Shown piece by piece: positions 21,876 through 32,638 of a stretch of DNA of 34,026 nt. This DNA is from Candidatus Aenigmatarchaeota archaeon. GTDB taxonomy: Archaea; Aenigmatarchaeota; Aenigmatarchaeia; CG10238-14; SpSt-28. Position numbers and translations under genes: made by a program. The stretch spans positions 1 to 34,026 of the forward strand of contig JAVVFY010000009.1 in assembly GCA_032249395.1 (NCBI GenBank), given 5' to 3'. Every line of letters starts with the position of its first letter. Position 1 is the stretch's first letter. The notes under the pieces are model-generated. The model was given only the letters and a program-made list of their open reading frames with translations. It was not told where the DNA came from and ran no database searches.

Positions 21876-24467
21876 ATGATTGAATTGATTAGAAAGAGAG
21901 ATGGTAGAATTGTAAAATTTAATAAAAATAAGATTACTGAAGCTATTTGGAAAGCGATACAAGCTGTTGGTGGTAAAGATAGGAATTTAGCAGAAAGTTT
22001 AGCTAATGAAGTTGTTTTACTTCTTGAGCAACAATTAAAACCTGGTGAAATTCCTCACGTGGAGCAAGTACAAGATTTAGTAGAGAAAGTTTTAGTAAAG
22101 AGCGGTAATTATGAAGTTGCTAAAGCGTATATAACTTACAGAAAAAAGAAAGAAGAAATTAGAAATGAAAAAATAGCAATACTGCAAGGATTTTACGAGG
22201 AAGAAATTGCAAAAAAATTCTCTTTGAATGCCTTGAGGCTAATGGCTAGTAGATATTTGCTTAAGAATGAAGAAGGAAAATTAATAGAAGGACCGAAACA
22301 AATGTTCGAAAGAGTAGCGATGCTTGTTGTTATTCCAGATTTGCTCTACGACTCCAGAGTTTTTGATAAAGACGGAAAACAAGAGGTCAAGCCTTTTGAA
22401 AATTTCGAACCAGAGAAATATGAAGGAAAGATAGGATTTAAAACAGAAAACGGATTTTTAGCCTGGAATAAACACCATCTCGAAAGAATGAAAAGTCTAT
22501 ACGATGAACTGAACTCTCAAGGTAAGATGAAAGTCAGTTGGAGTGATTTCTTGAAAATGTTGGAAAATGGAGAATTCCAAGAATATTACAAAAACTTCAG
22601 AGAATATTTTGATTTGATGGTTAGCAAAAGATTCTTGCCAAATTCTCCAACTCTTTTCAATGCCGGCGCAAGATTGGGACAATTAAGTGCTTGTTTTGTT
22701 ATAGGCATTGAAGACGATATGGGAAGTATAATGGATGCTGCTAAGGATGCAGCTCTGATTTTCAAGTCTGGCGGCGGAATAGGAATAAATTACTCAAAAC
22801 TTAGGCCGGGAGGAGATATAGTAGCTAGTACTAGTGGTGTGGCGAGCGGCCCCGTTTCTTTCATGAGAATTATTGATGTTGTTACTGATGTGGTAAAGCA
22901 AGGAGGAAAGAGAAGAGGAGCCAATATGGGAATTTTAGAGAGTTGGCATCCAGATATTCTAAAATTCATTCATGCGAAAGAAAAAGAAGGCCAATTTGAA
23001 AATTTCAATATTTCTGTAATGTTGGATGAGAATTTCTGGAGATGTTATGAGAATAATGAAAAATATCCTCTAATAAACCCTAGAAACGGAAAGGTTGTTG
23101 ATTATATTGATCCAAAATTCTTGTTGAACGAAATTGCAACCCTAGCTTGGAGGACTGCCGATCCAGGTGTTTTGTTTTTGGATAACATAAACAAAAGAAA
23201 TGTACAAAAAGAAAGTAGAGGGTTGATAAGGGCGACTAACCCTTGCGGTGAACAGCCTCTATATGAATATGAGTCTTGCAATCTTGGTTCGATAAATCTT
23301 TATGCAATGATAAAGTTTGATGAAAATGGAAATGCTTACTTTGATTGGGAAGATTACAAAAAAACGATAGAAGTTGCATACAGATTTTTAGATAATGTTA
23401 TAGATGTTAACAAATACCCAATAGAAAAAATTGATAAAGCTAGTAAAAACGTTAGAAGAATTGGTTTGGGTTACATGGGATTAGCTGACGCTATGTTTGC
23501 ATTAAGAATTCCTTACAATTCTGAAGAAGGTTTTGAATTCATAGGGAAAGTTACAGAATTTTTAACTTACTATGCTATGTATTATTCTGTTGAAAGAGCT
23601 AAAGAAAGAGGAGTATTTCCATTATACGAGCAAACTAGTTATAAAAAAGGAGAAATGCCAATAGAGGGATTTTACCATAAGGAAATTTGGAGTTTAAATT
23701 GGGAAGAACTAAGGCAAAATATTTTGAAATATGGTATAAGAAATGTTGAAGTTACAAGTATTGCACCTACAGGAAGTATAAGCATGTTTTTTGACGTTTC
23801 TAGTGGAATAGAACCGCAATTCTCTTTAGTTTTTGAAAAAAGAGTGACCGTTGGAAGATTCTTTTATACAGACATAGAGTTAGAAAGACAATTAAAGAGG
23901 GAAGGATTGTACAACGAAACTATACTCAAGAAAATAGCAGAAAATGGAGGTAGTATACAAGGTATAGAAGAGATTCCAGAAAATTTGAGGAAAGTTTTTG
24001 TTACAGCCTTAGATATTCCATGGTGGGATCATGTAAGAGCTCAAGCCGTAGCTCAACTTTGGATAACAACTTCAATAAGCAAAACTATAAATATGCCATC
24101 TTTTGCTACAGTTGAAGATGTTTTAGAAGCTTACATTACAGCTTATAAAATGGGATGTAAAGGAATAACAATTTACAGAGAGGGCAGCAAATCAAAACAA
24201 GTACTATATACACCATCCCAATCAGAAGAAAAAAGAATAGTTGAAGTTTTAAGGTTAATCCAAAACGATACTTTAAAAATTATGAAGAAGCTTGGATTAA
24301 AAGAGCCAAGATGGATATCAGAATTAAAGAAAGGAGGGAAGATATCTAGGATGAATGAAAATAATAAAATAGAAAGATGTCAAAATTGTGAGTCTGAGAG
24401 ATTGATCTACCAATCTGGTTGTGTAACTTGTTTAGATTGTGGTTGGTCTGCCTGCTTAATATCCTAA
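21876..24467 (+). CDS. nrdJ: Adenosylcobalamin-dependent (class II) ribonucleotide reductase with N-terminal ATP cone
   Basis: ATP cone IRKRDGR, PNSPTLFNAG, QLSACF, QGGKRRGANM, TNPCGEQPL, CNLGSINL, IAPTG and C-terminal CxxC...CxxCGWSAC; adjacent to PduO with no nrdB in the window. Confidence 0.93.
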   Translation: MIELIRKRDGRIVKFNKNKITEAIWKAIQAVGGKDRNLAESLANEVVLLLEQQLKPGEIPHVEQVQDLVEKVLVKSGNYEVAKAYITYRKKKEEIRNEKIAILQGFYEEEIAKKFSLNALRLMASRYLLKNEEGKLIEGPKQMFERVAMLVVIPDLLYDSRVFDKDGKQEVKPFENFEPEKYEGKIGFKTENGFLAWNKHHLERMKSLYDELNSQGKMKVSWSDFLKMLENGEFQEYYKNFREYFDLMVSKRFLPNSPTLFNAGARLGQLSACFVIGIEDDMGSIMDAAKDAALIFKSGGGIGINYSKLRPGGDIVASTSGVASGPVSFMRIIDVVTDVVKQGGKRRGANMGILESWHPDILKFIHAKEKEGQFENFNISVMLDENFWRCYENNEKYPLINPRNGKVVDYIDPKFLLNEIATLAWRTADPGVLFLDNINKRNVQKESRGLIRATNPCGEQPLYEYESCNLGSINLYAMIKFDENGNAYFDWEDYKKTIEVAYRFLDNVIDVNKYPIEKIDKASKNVRRIGLGYMGLADAMFALRIPYNSEEGFEFIGKVTEFLTYYAMYYSVERAKERGVFPLYEQTSYKKGEMPIEGFYHKEIWSLNWEELRQNILKYGIRNVEVTSIAPTGSISMFFDVSSGIEPQFSLVFEKRVTVGRFFYTDIELERQLKREGLYNETILKKIAENGGSIQGIEEIPENLRKVFVTALDIPWWDHVRAQAVAQLWITTSISKTINMPSFATVEDVLEAYITAYKMGCKGITIYREGSKSKQVLYTPSQSEEKRIVEVLRLIQNDTLKIMKKLGLKEPRWISELKKGGKISRMNENNKIERCQNCESERLIYQSGCVTCLDCGWSACLIS

Positions 24468-24478
24468 TTCTTTTTAAT
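24468..24478 (+). promoter_or_regulatory. T-tract/TATA element between nrdJ and aIF5B (possible terminator and promoter)
   Basis: TTCTTTTTAAT directly after the nrdJ stop, with TTTTTAAT 21-28 nt before the aIF5B ATG at 24499. Confidence 0.45.
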
Positions 24479-24498
24479 TGAAAAATTATCTCAATTTA

Positions 24499-26261
24499 AT
24501 GAAAGAAGAAATTAGAAGCCCAATAGTAGTAACTGTTGGTCATGTCGATCATGGAATGCTTTAAGGTATAAAACCTTAAAGCCCAAAAAGACGACTTTGC
24601 TAGACTGTATTAGAGGTACTGCTGTTGCTAAACTAGAGCCTGGAGAACTAACACAACACATAGGTGCAAGTTTTATCACTAAAAAAGTGATTGAAGATTT
24701 ATCTAAAGATTTGTTAAAAAAGATGAAAATATCTATAGAAATTCCAGGTTTGCTTTTTATAGATACTCCGGGGCATGCGGCTTTCATTAGCATGAGAGAG
24801 AAAGGATGTAACGTGGCCGATTTAGCTATATTAGTAGTAGATGTTAATGAGGGTTTTCAAGAACAAACTTATGAAAGCTTAAAGATATTGAAAGAATATA
24901 AAGTTCCTTTTATTGTTGCTGCAACGAAAATAGATAAGATTCCTGGTTGGAGAGATCAAAAAACGACATCTTTTCTTGAAAGCATTTCTAAACAAAGCGA
25001 AGATGTTGTTGAAGAATTAGACAAAAAAATTTACATGATTGTTTCTTCTTTAGCTGAATATAACTTTGATAGCGAGAGATTTGACAGAGTTACAGATTTT
25101 ACTAAACAAATTGCAATAGTTCCTGTTAGCTCTATAACAAAAGAAGGAATAGCCGAATTGTTAGCCATATTAGCTGGTTTAGCAAAAAAGTTCTTAAAAG
25201 ATAGGATAAAATGTTCTGGTAAAACAAAAGGAATAATACTGGAAGTTAAGGAAGTTAAAGGTTTGGGACTAACTCTTGATATAATACTTTATGATGGTAA
25301 ATTATCAAGAGAAGATTACCTGATTATTGGTGGTAAAGAACCAATAGTTACTAAAGTTAAAGCTTTACTTTTGCCAAGGCCTTTACAGGAAATTAGGGTA
25401 GAGAAAAAATTTATTAATGTTGATGAAGTCAACGCAGCAGCAGGAGTGAAAGTCGTAGCTCAAAATTTAGAGAAAGCTATAGCAGGCATGCCAATAAGAG
25501 CGACTAAAGATGAAAAGGAGATTCCAAAGCTTGTAGAAGAAGTTAAAATAGAAAAGTATGTTGAATTTGAGAAAGACCCAAATGGAGTAATAATTAAGGC
25601 AGATACTGTTGGAAGTTTAGAAGCCATGGTTAAACTTTTGAAAGAAGCAAATATCCCAATAAGAAAAGCAGATATTGGAAGTATAAATAGGGAAGACTTT
25701 ATAGAAGGCGAGCTAATTCAAGATAAATATAGAAAGGTTATACTTGCCTTTAATATAAAAGTTGATGAAGAAACAATAAACGAAGCAAGAAACTTTGGGT
25801 TAAAAATATTTAGCTCCAATGTAATTTATAGAATAATCGATGAATATAAGAAATGGATGGAAGAAGAGAAAAGAAAGGAGATAGAAACTAAACTCGAAAT
25901 TTTACCAAGACCTGTAAAAATAAGAGTTATTCCTGGAGCGGTATTCAGGAATAGCAAACCTGCAATTTTTGGTGTTGATGTTGTGGAAGGAACTTTAAAA
26001 CCAGGAATAACTCTTAAAAGAGAAGGAAAGATAGTCGGAAAAGTAAAAGAAATTCAAAGCGAGGGTAGAACGATACAAAAAGCAATAAAAGGAGAAAGAG
26101 TTGCTATTAGTATAGAAGAAGCTGTCTTTGGAAGAAATGTTTTTGAAAACGATGTTCTAATAAGTGAGTTAAGTAGAGAGGAGGTAGAAAAATTAAAAGA
26201 AGTTATTGATTATTTGAGAGAAGATGAGAAAAAGCTATTGATGGAAATTATTGGAAGTTAA
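24499..26261 (+). CDS. infB: Translation initiation factor aIF5B (IF-2), split gene: exon 1 24499-24556, exon 2 24589-26261, 576 aa after splicing
   Basis: Exon 1 encodes MKEEIRSPIVVTVGHVDHG; the downstream frame reads KTTLLDCIRGT...TQHIGAS...DTPGH...TKID...KADTVGSLEA; joining restores GHVDHGKTT. Confidence 0.92.
24557..24588 (+). other. Putative 32-nt BHB-type intron in the aIF5B mRNA
   Basis: Perfect 10-bp hairpin GCTTTAAGGT/ACCTTAAAGC (24558-67/24573-82), 3-nt bulges AAT (24555-57) and AAA (24587-89), central helix ATGG/CCAA with one mismatch, and an exon-exon stem; contains an in-frame TAA at 24562. Confidence 0.8.
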
Positions 26262-29201: not shown

Positions 29202-29327
29202 GGGCCTGTAGCTCAGCCTGGTAGAGCAGCGGAAGTTTGCTGCTGAGGCTTTTAAGCCAGCTGAGCAAAAAAGCTCTGATATAATGAAGAAACCCGTTGG
29301 TCGTGGGTTCAAATCCCACCAGGCCCA
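29202..29327 (+). tRNA. tRNA-Lys(UUU) with two introns (29233-29247 at 30/31; 29255-29291 at 37/38)
   Basis: Spliced form GGGCCTG TA GCTC AGCCTGGTA GAGC A GCGGG CT-TTT-AA CCCGT TGGTC GTGGG TTCAAAT CCCAC CAGGCCC A is a full cloverleaf; intron 1 has a strict BHB, intron 2 has helix CTTT/GAAG plus an AAA bulge. Confidence 0.85.
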
Positions 29328-29350
29328 TCTTGAATAATAAAAATGAATGG

Positions 29351-32300
29351 ATGATAATAATGATGAATATATCTAACAACGATAGTTTAGAAAAAATAGA
29401 TATCATCAAATTATCCGAAAAGATAAGGAAATGCGCTTCTGAGTCTTCTAACGAAGAGGAACTAAAAATAGCGGTAGAAAAGCTGCTAGATCCTATAGTA
29501 AAATCTTGGGGAATCAGAGCCTTCTATGAGCATAAAACAAGAGACGATATTTCTGGTTTGAGGGAAGACGCACTTTATGGCCATGTAATTATTGAATACA
29601 AAAAACCTGGTGAGTTAGAAAGTAAGACGAACTTTGAAAAATTTAAAGAAAAGTTGAAGGAATATTTAACAAAAGAAGCTGGAGATCAAAAGAATCTAGG
29701 AAAATGGTTTGGAGTAATAACGGATGGTTATAAAATTGCCTTTATCAGATTTAGGAAAAATAAATGGGAAGAGAAAGGACCGCATGCTATAAACAAAGAA
29801 ACAGTAAAAATCCTCTTAAGAGCAATTAGAGGTTTAAATCTTAGAATTATAGAACCTGAAGCATTGGTTAAAGATTTTGGTCCCGGAGAATTGAGTAAAA
29901 AAGTAATTTATCAATTCTACACTACTTTGATAGAATCAAAATCTAAGAGAACAAACATGCTTTTTGAAGATTGGAAGAGAGTCTTTCAACAAGTATGTGC
30001 TTATTCACCAGAAAAGCTATCCGCTTTAATCGAATATTATGGGTTAAAACACTATAAAATACAAAATGTAGAGAAGCTAATGTTTGCAATTCATACTTAT
30101 TATACATTGGTTATGAAATTTTTGACTTCCGAAGTAATATCCTACTTCAACCCAATATTTGGATCGTTTTTAGAGAGGGTAGAAAGCGCTTATTTAAAGG
30201 GAATAGATGAGATGAAAAAAGAGTTAGAAAATTTGGAAGAAGGAGGAATTATAACTCAATTGGGTATAAGAAACTTACTTGAGGCAGATTATTTTGCTTG
30301 GTATTTGGATGAATGGGACGAAAAGATTGCTGAGGCTATTTTTTCTATTGTTGAAAAGTTGAAAGAATATGATCCAGGAACATTAGAACTATATCCAGAA
30401 AAAGTAAAAGACCTTTTCAAAAGATTATATCAAAATTTAGTTCCAAAGAAAGTAAGACACGATTTAGGGGAATACTTTACTCCAGATTGGTTGGCAGAAT
30501 TGCTTTTGGATGAGATTGGCTATGATGGAAATCCGGAGAAGAGAATTCTAGATCCATCATGCGGTTCTGGAACATTTTTGGTTTTGGCAATAAACAGAAT
30601 AAAAGACTGGGCTGAAAGGGAATTCTATCCAGATAAAAAAGAATTACTTAGAAAGATATTGCAAAATGTGGTAGGTATAGATTTAAATCCATTAGCTGTA
30701 TTAGCAGCTAGAGCAAACTTCATTTTGGCTTTAGGTGAATTGAACAGGTTACTACCAGGAGAAAATGTGGATATTCCTGTTTATTTGGCAGATTCTATTT
30801 TAGTAAGTAGGAAACCAACATTTTATGGTGAATGGGAAGTTTATTTGAAGACGAGTGTAGGAGAATTTTGGATTCCACATGAAGTTATTGACAAAAAACT
30901 TTTAACAAAAGTTTTAGCATTGATAGAAGATGGTATTAAAGGAAATTATAACAAAGAAGAATTTATCGGCTTATTAAAAAATGAATTGAAATGGCTAAAA
31001 TCATCAAGCGTAGATTCATTGGCTAGACTTTTCATGTTTATAAGGAAATTGGAAAGAGAAGGCAAAAATAAGATTTGGACTAGATTGTTGAAAAATTCTT
31101 TTGCTCCTTTATTGTTGGAAAAATTTGATTTTGTAGTAGGAAATCCACCTTGGATAAATTGGGAGAGCTTGCCAGAAAAATATAGAGAAGATACTAAAAA
31201 ACTTTGGGATAGTTATGGTCTCCTCGAGAGAACAGAAGGCGCTGGTTTAGGAAAAGTTAAGAGAGATATGGCAATGCTATTTACGGCAAGATGTTTAGAT
31301 AGATATGTAAAAGAAAAAGGAAAGCTAGCTTTTCTAATTCCTTTTACAGTTTATAAAACACAAGCAGGTGCAGGTTTTAGAAAGTTTTTAGCAAATGGAA
31401 TAGAAAATGGGGAGAGAAAAATTCCTTGTAAAGTTTTAAAAGTTCATGATTTAGTTACGCTTTATCCATTTGAAGGAGCAATCAATAGGACATCTTTGAT
31501 AGTTATAGAAAAGGATGGAAAAACAAAATTTCCAATTCCTTGTGTCATGTGGCATAATCCAAGAAGCAAAGGTATTGACCAAGAAGCAGAATTAGAAGAG
31601 GTTAAAAGAAATACAAAACAATTTGAATTAATTTTAGCGCCTATAAGAAAGGGAAAGCCAGAAACTCCATGGATGATAATTAGTGAAAAAGCATATAATA
31701 CGCTCGAAAAAGTTATTGGAGAATCTCCATATAGGGCATACGAGGGAGTAAATATGGGTGGTTTAGATGGCGCATATTATATAAGAATTCTCTCCATTCA
31801 AACAAAGAATTTTGTTTTAATCGAAAACTTATTCGATATTGGAAAGAAAAAAGTAAAAAGAGTAGAAAGTGTTGTTGAAAGCGATTTAATATACCCAATA
31901 ATTAGAGGCAGGGAGGTTAAAAAGTGGTATGGCATTTATTCAAGTTATGTAATTTTACCAACAGATAAAAAAGGAGAAAATTTAACCGAATCTATTATGA
32001 AGGTGAAGTTTCCTAAGACCTACAAATACTTTTTAGAATTTAAAAAAGATTTGGAAGAAAGAAGTCTATATAAGTTAGCTGGTAAAGACAAGATTTGGTA
32101 TGGTTTATATGTGAATATAGGAGATTATACTTTCGCGCCATATAAAGTAGTATGGAAGAATATAGCCGGTAAGATTTCCGGCAAGGCAGAGTTTTCTGCT
32201 GCAGTGTTAACCCCCGCAAACGATAAGTTTTTAGGAGTTAAGGTGATAATTCCAAATGTTAAACTAATGTTAATTCCTTTTGATGATGAAAGTGAAGCTT

Positions 32301-32638
32301 ATTATGTTTGTTCTGTGTTGAACTCTTCAGTGGTACAGCTAATTGTCTCTTCATATGTAATTGAAACTGGAATATCGACACATATTACTAAAAATGTCTA
32401 TATTCCAAAATTTAATCCTAAGAATAAGCTTCATATAAAACTTTCTGAACTTTCTAAAAAGGCTCATGAATTAGCTAAAAGATATTATGAACAAAATGAT
32501 GAAGATGCTAAAAAGGAATTAGAAAAGATCGAAGAGGAAATTGATAAAACTGTTGCTGAAATTTATGGAATAAGTGATGAAGAACTTGAAGAAATAAAGA
32601 AAACTTTGAAAATTTTGAAAGAAGGAGAAGTTGAATAA
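29351..32638 (+). CDS. Type IIG-like fused restriction endonuclease/N6-adenine methyltransferase
   Basis: N-terminal D...EYK nuclease-like motif (EDALYGHVIIEYKKPG), GEYFTPDW, motif I DPSCGSGTFL, motif IV GNPPW and a C-terminal target-recognition region; start moved to an ATG (29351/29360/29363) because the TTG at 29297 lies in the tRNA. Confidence 0.85.
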   Translation: MIIMMNISNNDSLEKIDIIKLSEKIRKCASESSNEEELKIAVEKLLDPIVKSWGIRAFYEHKTRDDISGLREDALYGHVIIEYKKPGELESKTNFEKFKEKLKEYLTKEAGDQKNLGKWFGVITDGYKIAFIRFRKNKWEEKGPHAINKETVKILLRAIRGLNLRIIEPEALVKDFGPGELSKKVIYQFYTTLIESKSKRTNMLFEDWKRVFQQVCAYSPEKLSALIEYYGLKHYKIQNVEKLMFAIHTYYTLVMKFLTSEVISYFNPIFGSFLERVESAYLKGIDEMKKELENLEEGGIITQLGIRNLLEADYFAWYLDEWDEKIAEAIFSIVEKLKEYDPGTLELYPEKVKDLFKRLYQNLVPKKVRHDLGEYFTPDWLAELLLDEIGYDGNPEKRILDPSCGSGTFLVLAINRIKDWAEREFYPDKKELLRKILQNVVGIDLNPLAVLAARANFILALGELNRLLPGENVDIPVYLADSILVSRKPTFYGEWEVYLKTSVGEFWIPHEVIDKKLLTKVLALIEDGIKGNYNKEEFIGLLKNELKWLKSSSVDSLARLFMFIRKLEREGKNKIWTRLLKNSFAPLLLEKFDFVVGNPPWINWESLPEKYREDTKKLWDSYGLLERTEGAGLGKVKRDMAMLFTARCLDRYVKEKGKLAFLIPFTVYKTQAGAGFRKFLANGIENGERKIPCKVLKVHDLVTLYPFEGAINRTSLIVIEKDGKTKFPIPCVMWHNPRSKGIDQEAELEEVKRNTKQFELILAPIRKGKPETPWMIISEKAYNTLEKVIGESPYRAYEGVNMGGLDGAYYIRILSIQTKNFVLIENLFDIGKKKVKRVESVVESDLIYPIIRGREVKKWYGIYSSYVILPTDKKGENLTESIMKVKFPKTYKYFLEFKKDLEERSLYKLAGKDKIWYGLYVNIGDYTFAPYKVVWKNIAGKISGKAEFSAAVLTPANDKFLGVKVIIPNVKLMLIPFDDESEAYYVCSVLNSSVVQLIVSSYVIETGISTHITKNVYIPKFNPKNKLHIKLSELSKKAHELAKRYYEQNDEDAKKELEKIEEEIDKTVAEIYGISDEELEEIKKTLKILKEGEVE

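Follow-up and report, generated by a model that had tools for sequence, protein, structure and literature searches.

The gene for the translation factor aIF5B in the archaeal DNA described here is broken within its P-loop (G1) by an insert of 32 nt that contains a stop codon. Here, the window refers to the whole stretch of 34,026 nt that was analysed, which belongs to an Aenigmatarchaeota genome of 752,806 bp in 25 contigs (89.5% complete); the sequencing runs that contain this genome are hot-spring metagenomes. The insert is very probably a BHB mRNA intron of the cbf5 type, placed in the P-loop Lys codon of aIF5B and likely excised by the tRNA splicing endonuclease and a ligase.

Starting at ATG 24499, the aIF5B frame continues into the G1 motif as far as DHG, followed by Met, Leu and the TAA at 24562-64. 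A first-pass annotation, made from the sequence alone, had placed the ATG, the TAA, the hairpin, the bulges, the central helix and the exon-exon stem where they are found; its reading of the unspliced frame was correct as far as DHG and omitted the two further residues (M, L) before the stop. The downstream frame (from 24597) matches PRK04004 (E 4e-209) with profile positions 1-26 absent, and exon 2 is a full open frame. The intron stem comprises 10 bp (24558-67 with 24573-82) and a loop of 5 nt, the central helix consists of three pairs and an A.A mismatch and is flanked by two 3-nt bulges on opposite strands, and A24548 is bulged from the exon-exon stem. This BHB is both the MFE and the centroid fold of the region (-21.8 kcal/mol, z -4.60), and 0 of 200 shuffles equal it. 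Features are collected in Table 1.

Table 1. Features of the aIF5B locus (positions in the window)
Feature	Position	Strand	Description
NrdJ, class II ribonucleotide reductase; gene upstream of aIF5B	21876..24467	+	
aIF5B exon 1	24499..24556	+	Start codon to base 1 of the P-loop (G1) Lys codon; agrees with the N-terminus of intronless relatives
Whole BHB domain	24544..24595	+	Closed by exon-exon stem 24544-50 with 24590-95
Central helix 5′ strand (24551-54) and 5′ bulge (24555-57)	24551..24557	+	Predicted cut after 24556
BHB intron, 32 nt (very probable)	24557..24588	+	In-frame TAA 24562-24564; 10-bp stem; fold, RNA contig, DNA contigs, homologue register
Central helix 3′ strand (24583-86) and 3′ bulge (24587-89)	24583..24589	+	Predicted cut after 24588
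aIF5B exon 2	24589..26261	+	Remaining Lys-codon bases to stop; 576 aa with exon 1; PRK04004 E 4e-209; Pfam GTP_EFTU, IF-2, GTP_EFTU_D4

EndA cuts after the second base of the bulge (PMC12397907), and the earlier proposal that this rule removes 24557-24588 and leaves a 576-aa aIF5B with an intact G1 motif was reproduced. The splice point falls between bases 1 and 2 of the P-loop Lys codon, although with the window sequence an excision shifted by -1 or -2 yields the same protein. The P-loop Lys is essential for GTP binding. Unspliced RNA would yield a peptide of 21 residues, so that expression of this core gene would require splicing.

BHB geometry by itself is common, with 660 folds recovered by a strict scan of this genome, and it was rejected as evidence when taken alone, as a loose scan gave mainly noise (40,973 candidates, of which 1,807 rows join a frame). 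What gives the aIF5B insert its significance is the motif restored on its removal, together with its homologues and the RNA contig. Short-word BLAST detected neither a second copy of the intron nor a likeness to the tRNA introns of this genome, and no Rfam match was obtained across 24000-25000 (E up to 1). Other classes of intervening sequence were considered and rejected. A group I or group II self-splicing intron needs a ribozyme core of well over 100 nt, to be set against an insert of 32 nt that matches nothing in Rfam; an intein is incompatible with 32 nt that shift the frame and contain a stop; and a box C/D guide RNA within the intron is opposed by the occurrence of the motifs in 0/11 inserts at the Lys codon and of a lone CTGA in 5/28 at a second site, the His codon described below.

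The proposed pathway has three steps, wherein the aIF5B pre-mRNA would fold into the BHB, an epsilon2-type EndA would cut after 24556 and after 24588, and RtcB would ligate the exons to give the 576-aa protein. From the geometry, the register, the RNA contig and the gene content, we infer that EndA and RtcB are the cutting and joining enzymes. The genome encodes, on contig C3, an epsilon2-type EndA of 400 aa that matches the EndA of ARMAN-2 (4fz2, E 3e-89), and alignment of the two shows conservation of Tyr, His, Lys and the YK loop; these three residues are catalytic in EndA, and the YK loop has been linked to broad specificity (PMC12397907). A second EndA, an alpha-type paralogue on contig C2 (L191:1474-2145, minus strand), has the Tyr and the His and carries Ala at the position of the catalytic Lys. 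RtcB is also encoded (E 9e-173).

Introns were reported by Aragorn in about 17 of the 45 tRNA genes of the genome. Within the window, a tRNA gene with an intron lies at 29202-29327 (plus strand), where the default scan missed it and aragorn -i calls 'Stop(tta)' with a 32-nt intron; this call is probably a miscall of a gene with more than one intron. The gene for a 1113-aa Eco57I-like adenine methyltransferase/restriction protein (29297-32638, plus strand) starts at the tRNA gene. Several inserts with strong BHB-like folds are also encountered in the rRNA genes of this genome (G000:C13 and C11).

Splicing of the insert predicts that it is present in DNA and missing from RNA. Contigs from four of four DNA runs keep the insert and none has the joined form, the comparison having covered four of 15 runs, none of which is flagged as a run that the window may have come from. 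Run X10 holds two strains, each bearing the intron, and a separately deposited contig (L046) has the identical insert; the possibility of an assembly error, raised at first pass, is thereby answered by independent DNA. In the RNA run X17, one contig of 275 nt (depth 3.6) skips exactly 32 nt between 24554 and 24587; the junction is ambiguous by 2 nt, and the BHB register is among its options. The joined form anticipated by the first-pass annotation is thus seen in this RNA contig. The arms of this contig differ from the window at 1 position in 121 nt (left) and at 11 in 154 nt (right), corresponding to a strain about 96% identical to the window. Mean depth at the X17 bin is 2.39, the share of the skipping contig alone, so that no intron-bearing X17 contig contributes. 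The RNA comparison used four of five metatranscriptome runs and the site was covered in X17 alone, being outside the coverage of X16, X18 and X19; the RNA support is a single low-depth assembled contig, as opposed to raw reads, and has no matched DNA run.

Intronless alleles exist within the genus, in sister species (6 of 9 genomes), and the origin of the X17 contig has to be weighed accordingly. Measured against the window, the six nearest alleles without the intron show 7-9 differences over 58 bases to the left and 28-35 over 152 to the right, from which it follows that the RNA contig is none of these six. Three letters in its right arm agree with a sister species that bears a 31-nt intron, so a chimera or a third strain is possible. 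There is a residual chance that the skip reflects an intronless strain outside the sampling, a chimeric contig, or a reverse transcriptase skip across the hairpin.

Comparison with orthologues, also suggested at first pass, provides the second line of evidence, as relatives carry Lys-codon inserts with covarying stems. Inserts of 18-32 nt at the Lys codon were found among 190 aIF5B loci, and an exact pattern applied to 371 genomes of the phylum produced 22 Lys-site hits, eight of which are introns, distributed over four families; the 14 hits dropped comprise ten intronless aIF5B genes with a D-A/S-G loop, three other genes and one gene cut by a contig end. Within the genus the Lys-site intron occurs in 3 of 9 genomes. 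Introns within the genus are homologous: their alignment, over six homologues, has 92.5% of cells paired and three pairs changed on both sides, although the relatives are not independent and two of five covariation measures are not beyond shuffles (60/500 and 164/500). When the 11 distinct Lys-site inserts are considered together, the first four stem pairs are formed in 43 of 44 cells, compared with 27 for shuffled halves, and 0 of 2000 shuffles reach this value; here and at the second site below, the pairing involves several types of base pair. Register 0, which corresponds to the BHB cut, alone restores the Lys in all 11, and the junction that is ambiguous from the window alone is thereby fixed. 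Most homologues have 4/4 pairs in the central helix, as against 3/4 in the window, and the BHB is missing from the MFE fold at one of eight Lys-site loci.

A second aIF5B intron site is located 15 nt upstream, after base 1 of a His codon. The exact pattern for this site gave 30 hits in the 371 genomes, 26 in aIF5B and four in another GTPase, which we take from its motifs to be aIF2-gamma-like; His-site BHB introns of 30-31 nt are present in this aIF2-gamma-like gene at L306, L323, L324 and L326. Among 28 distinct His-site inserts the stem is formed in 110 of 112 cells (84 for shuffled halves, with 0 of 2000 shuffles reaching the observed value), register 0 alone restores the motif in 28 of 28, and the BHB is missing from the MFE fold at 4 of 26 loci. 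Inserts whose length is a multiple of three, at either site, contain a stop in 16 of 16 cases. Overall, among the 371 genomes of the phylum, no fewer than 34 have an interrupted G1 loop (8 Lys and 26 His), a lower bound given the exact patterns, with 336 genomes having a match to the aIF5B N-terminus. None of the 34 has both sites occupied, no long ORF-bearing intron at the Lys or His site was noted among the pattern hits, and short inserts were found in 0 of 48 readable aIF5B loci from other archaeal groups. On a tree of 94 aIF5B sequences, enriched for intron carriers, the 12 tips with the Lys-site intron require 6 changes and the 26 with the His-site intron require 11. The aIF5B introns are clustered on the tree, yet have been repeatedly gained or lost.

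It could be argued that the spliced insert is no selfish relic but is retained for regulation, by making aIF5B synthesis depend on tRNA-splicing capacity or temperature, a proposal that would account for the stop that every insert forces within 1-5 codons, for the retention of the His-site intron by the majority of family f5 (23 genomes with 13 pattern hits, of which one falls in another GTPase), and for host genes that, as found so far, act in translation and RNA processing. Such gating is nonetheless unlikely, as presence is patchy among species that are about 90% identical, two different codons are occupied, the intron sequence is not conserved outside the stems, X17, the run covering the site, yielded no unspliced RNA contig, and the Lys-site introns lack the C/D-box motif.

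Programmed bypass is known from T4 gene 60, where the ribosome moves between matched take-off and landing codons. An unspliced aIF5B mRNA might likewise be translated by ribosomal bypass over the hairpin, or by restart at TTG 24597, with the RNA contig representing an intronless strain or a reverse transcription artefact. The Gly codon, the close stop and the hairpin do resemble a bypass signal; however, take-off and landing codons agree in just 1/11 Lys-site and 0/28 His-site inserts, and the insert lengths span all three frames while the BHB geometry is constant. Restart would use an ORF of 554 aa from TTG 24597, but its product would be without the entire G1 loop. Sister species without the intron do exist, yet the left arm of the RNA contig is that of the window's species, and we regard both versions as very improbable. 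That the insert is an assembly error, or the gene a pseudogene with a functional aIF5B elsewhere, might be entertained for a draft genome of this completeness and contig number, but it is barely credible: the DNA contigs described above refute the former, exon 2 is fully open, other species have homologous inserts with compensatory changes, and a single aIF5B match lies above the family cut-off in the 89.5%-complete genome, where the second intact copy named at first pass as a possible refutation was not found. The intron reading of the first-pass annotation is accordingly upheld by DNA that keeps the insert, an RNA contig that skips it, covarying stems that recur in relatives, and the presence of genes for EndA and RtcB.

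The first-pass annotation also suspected a wider set of mRNA introns in this lineage, and beyond the second aIF5B site across the phylum, a scan of this genome for broken core genes with BHB inserts produced two more candidates; the set is small and patchy, falls on invariant codons of core genes, and the three found are a lower bound. When strict folds that rejoin a broken frame are ranked by energy per length, RNase HII, ValRS and aIF5B are the top three of 30. The candidate RNase HII intron (G000:C7:16205-16183, minus strand; L360) has 23 nt and directly follows the Asp-Glu codons, and no ATG, GTG or TTG start is evident for exon 1 of L360. An insert at the Asp-Glu site occurs in 2/29 loci, being common to this genome and G005, and a second site, in an Arg codon, is occupied in 3/29 loci (G019, G023, G027) and in G039. 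The RNase HII intron escaped a comparison with G006 (about 557 of about 700 kb) and G039 (800 of about 876 kb), because the G006 gene lies beyond the part compared and the G039 gene is itself interrupted. The candidate ValRS intron (G000:C1:85549-85568, plus strand; L267/L271) has 20 nt and is located immediately before the HIGH-like motif; it is one of two inserts in 30 loci, the other being a similar sequence of 21 nt in G033, a member of a different family, and it is absent from eight genomes of the same genus. The proteasome alpha-like gene of G039 has a BHB insert of 31 nt (G039:C2:501645-501615, minus strand). Judged from their sequences, the ValRS, RNase HII and G039 proteasome alpha inserts are candidate mRNA introns. 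Separately, a P-type-ATPase-like gene (G000:C4, about 36769, plus strand) has an apparent frameshift without a convincing BHB.

The means by which such introns are spread may lie in the neighbouring genes. In six intron-bearing loci (L049, L101, L318, L330, L341 and L343) a LAGLIDADG-like ORF of 380-475 aa, cut by the contig end in L101, ends beside the aIF5B start. Pfam LAGLIDADG_3 matches are weak and were obtained for two of the six (E 5e-4 and 8e-4), and in the Atlas the L343 ORF falls with clusters of LAGLIDADG_3 (score 0.93), 22% of whose members carry that family. A profile built from the six ORFs detected no upstream homologue in any of the 119 intronless rows that offered 700 nt or more; these rows include duplicates, related genomes are not independent of one another, and the profile derives from the six positives themselves. 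The family is found upstream of only 6 of 39 distinct introns. Neither this genome nor its genus has an endonuclease gene beside aIF5B, the place being taken by nrdJ, and LAGLIDADG_3 matches in this genome number 21. Two of four aIF2-gamma-like loci (L306 and L326) have a LAGLIDADG-motif ORF of 460-476 aa directly upstream. A different family of ORFs, of about 400 aa, ends at the aIF5B start in L301, which has an intron, and in L088 and L091, which are intronless with a D-A-G P-loop; these are possibly decayed endonucleases beside resistant targets.

The same P-loop codons are also occupied by inteins. In L008, L020, L065, L177, L183, L187, L188 and L190 an aIF5B intein of 145-575 aa sits at GK|T, at a distance of 2 nt from the Lys site, and no examined aIF5B locus has both intein and intron. 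Across 118 genomes of the order, a pattern for the intein junction gave seven hits, and a His-site intron accompanied none of them. The aIF2-gamma-like gene of the present genome (G000:C1, about 103978, minus strand; L359) has a LAGLIDADG intein of about 525 aa at GK|T, a site homologous to the one next to the aIF5B intron.

Phages are known to practise 'collaborative homing', and a comparable process can be envisaged here. The endonuclease would cut the intronless G1 codons, and the intron, by destroying the target, would make its own allele immune; the intron would spread by co-conversion with the free-standing LAGLIDADG-like gene just upstream and would persist once that gene is lost, since only exact loss from an invariant codon would be tolerated. 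Whether the aIF5B introns have spread by co-conversion with the upstream LAGLIDADG-like endonuclease is, in our estimation, an evenly balanced matter. Even chances are likewise given to the broader proposal that Aenigmatarchaeota harbour recurring mobile mRNA mini-introns in invariant codons of core genes, as two-part elements (an upstream LAGLIDADG gene and a shielding intron) that compete with inteins for the same P-loop codons, with EndA-dependent mRNA splicing being routine in the phylum. The hosts named for this proposed class are aIF5B (two codons), the aIF2-gamma-like GTPase, ValRS, RNase HII (two codons) and proteasome alpha.

If a universal translation GTPase has a spliced intron at one or other of two codons in about one tenth of the genomes of the phylum, with further host genes in each genome, then splicing of archaeal mRNA would be more than the peculiarity of a single gene. 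Annotation may also wrongly record core marker genes of DPANN archaea as truncated. With sister species that differ in the intron, an intein 2 nt away and adjacent endonuclease genes, the entry and spread of ORF-less BHB introns becomes testable.

Among known systems the cbf5 intron, reportedly the subject of studies by Watanabe in 2002 and Yoshinari in 2006, is the closest. A report on cbf5 pre-mRNA (PMC2738675) describes BHB introns of 16-44 nt in Desulfurococcales and Sulfolobales and their omission from annotation. The aIF5B intron is likewise short, ORF-less and bounded by a BHB, lies between letters 1 and 2 of an invariant active-site codon, and has a lineage-specific presence. Unlike cbf5, aIF5B is a universal GTPase, here in a DPANN phylum with an epsilon2-type EndA; it has two sites 15 nt apart and a presence that differs between sister species; there are several host genes per genome; and its intron is 2 nt from an intein site and sometimes beside a free-standing LAGLIDADG-like gene. 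In two reports (PMC7714728, PMC2738675), cbf5 is the only archaeal coding sequence named as having a BHB intron, and no published account of such an intron in aIF5B or in Aenigmatarchaeota mRNAs was found among the titles and abstract openings of non-subscription papers, though supplements to genome papers may contain such inserts. With high confidence, the present case adds a new host gene and a new lineage to the cbf5-type mRNA introns, with comparative and first RNA support. HVO_1309 of Haloferax volcanii is an mRNA substrate of the splicing endonuclease with a BHB intron in the 5′ UTR (PMC7714728), whereas the aIF5B intron breaks the reading frame. Short hairpin introns of Thermoproteales 16S rRNA move through co-conversion, together with a homing endonuclease encoded nearby (Pog.S1205 with Pog.S1213; PMC4496867). 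Pog.S1205 and the aIF5B introns are alike in being BHB hairpins of less than 50 nt without an ORF of their own, for which an endonuclease encoded close by helps, or in aIF5B may help, the spread; they differ in that the host is here an mRNA and the candidate endonuclease a free-standing upstream gene, not one in a neighbouring intron. At GK|T, the aIF5B/IF2 intein shares its G1 target codons with the Lys-site intron but, unlike the intron, is in frame and removed at the level of the protein.
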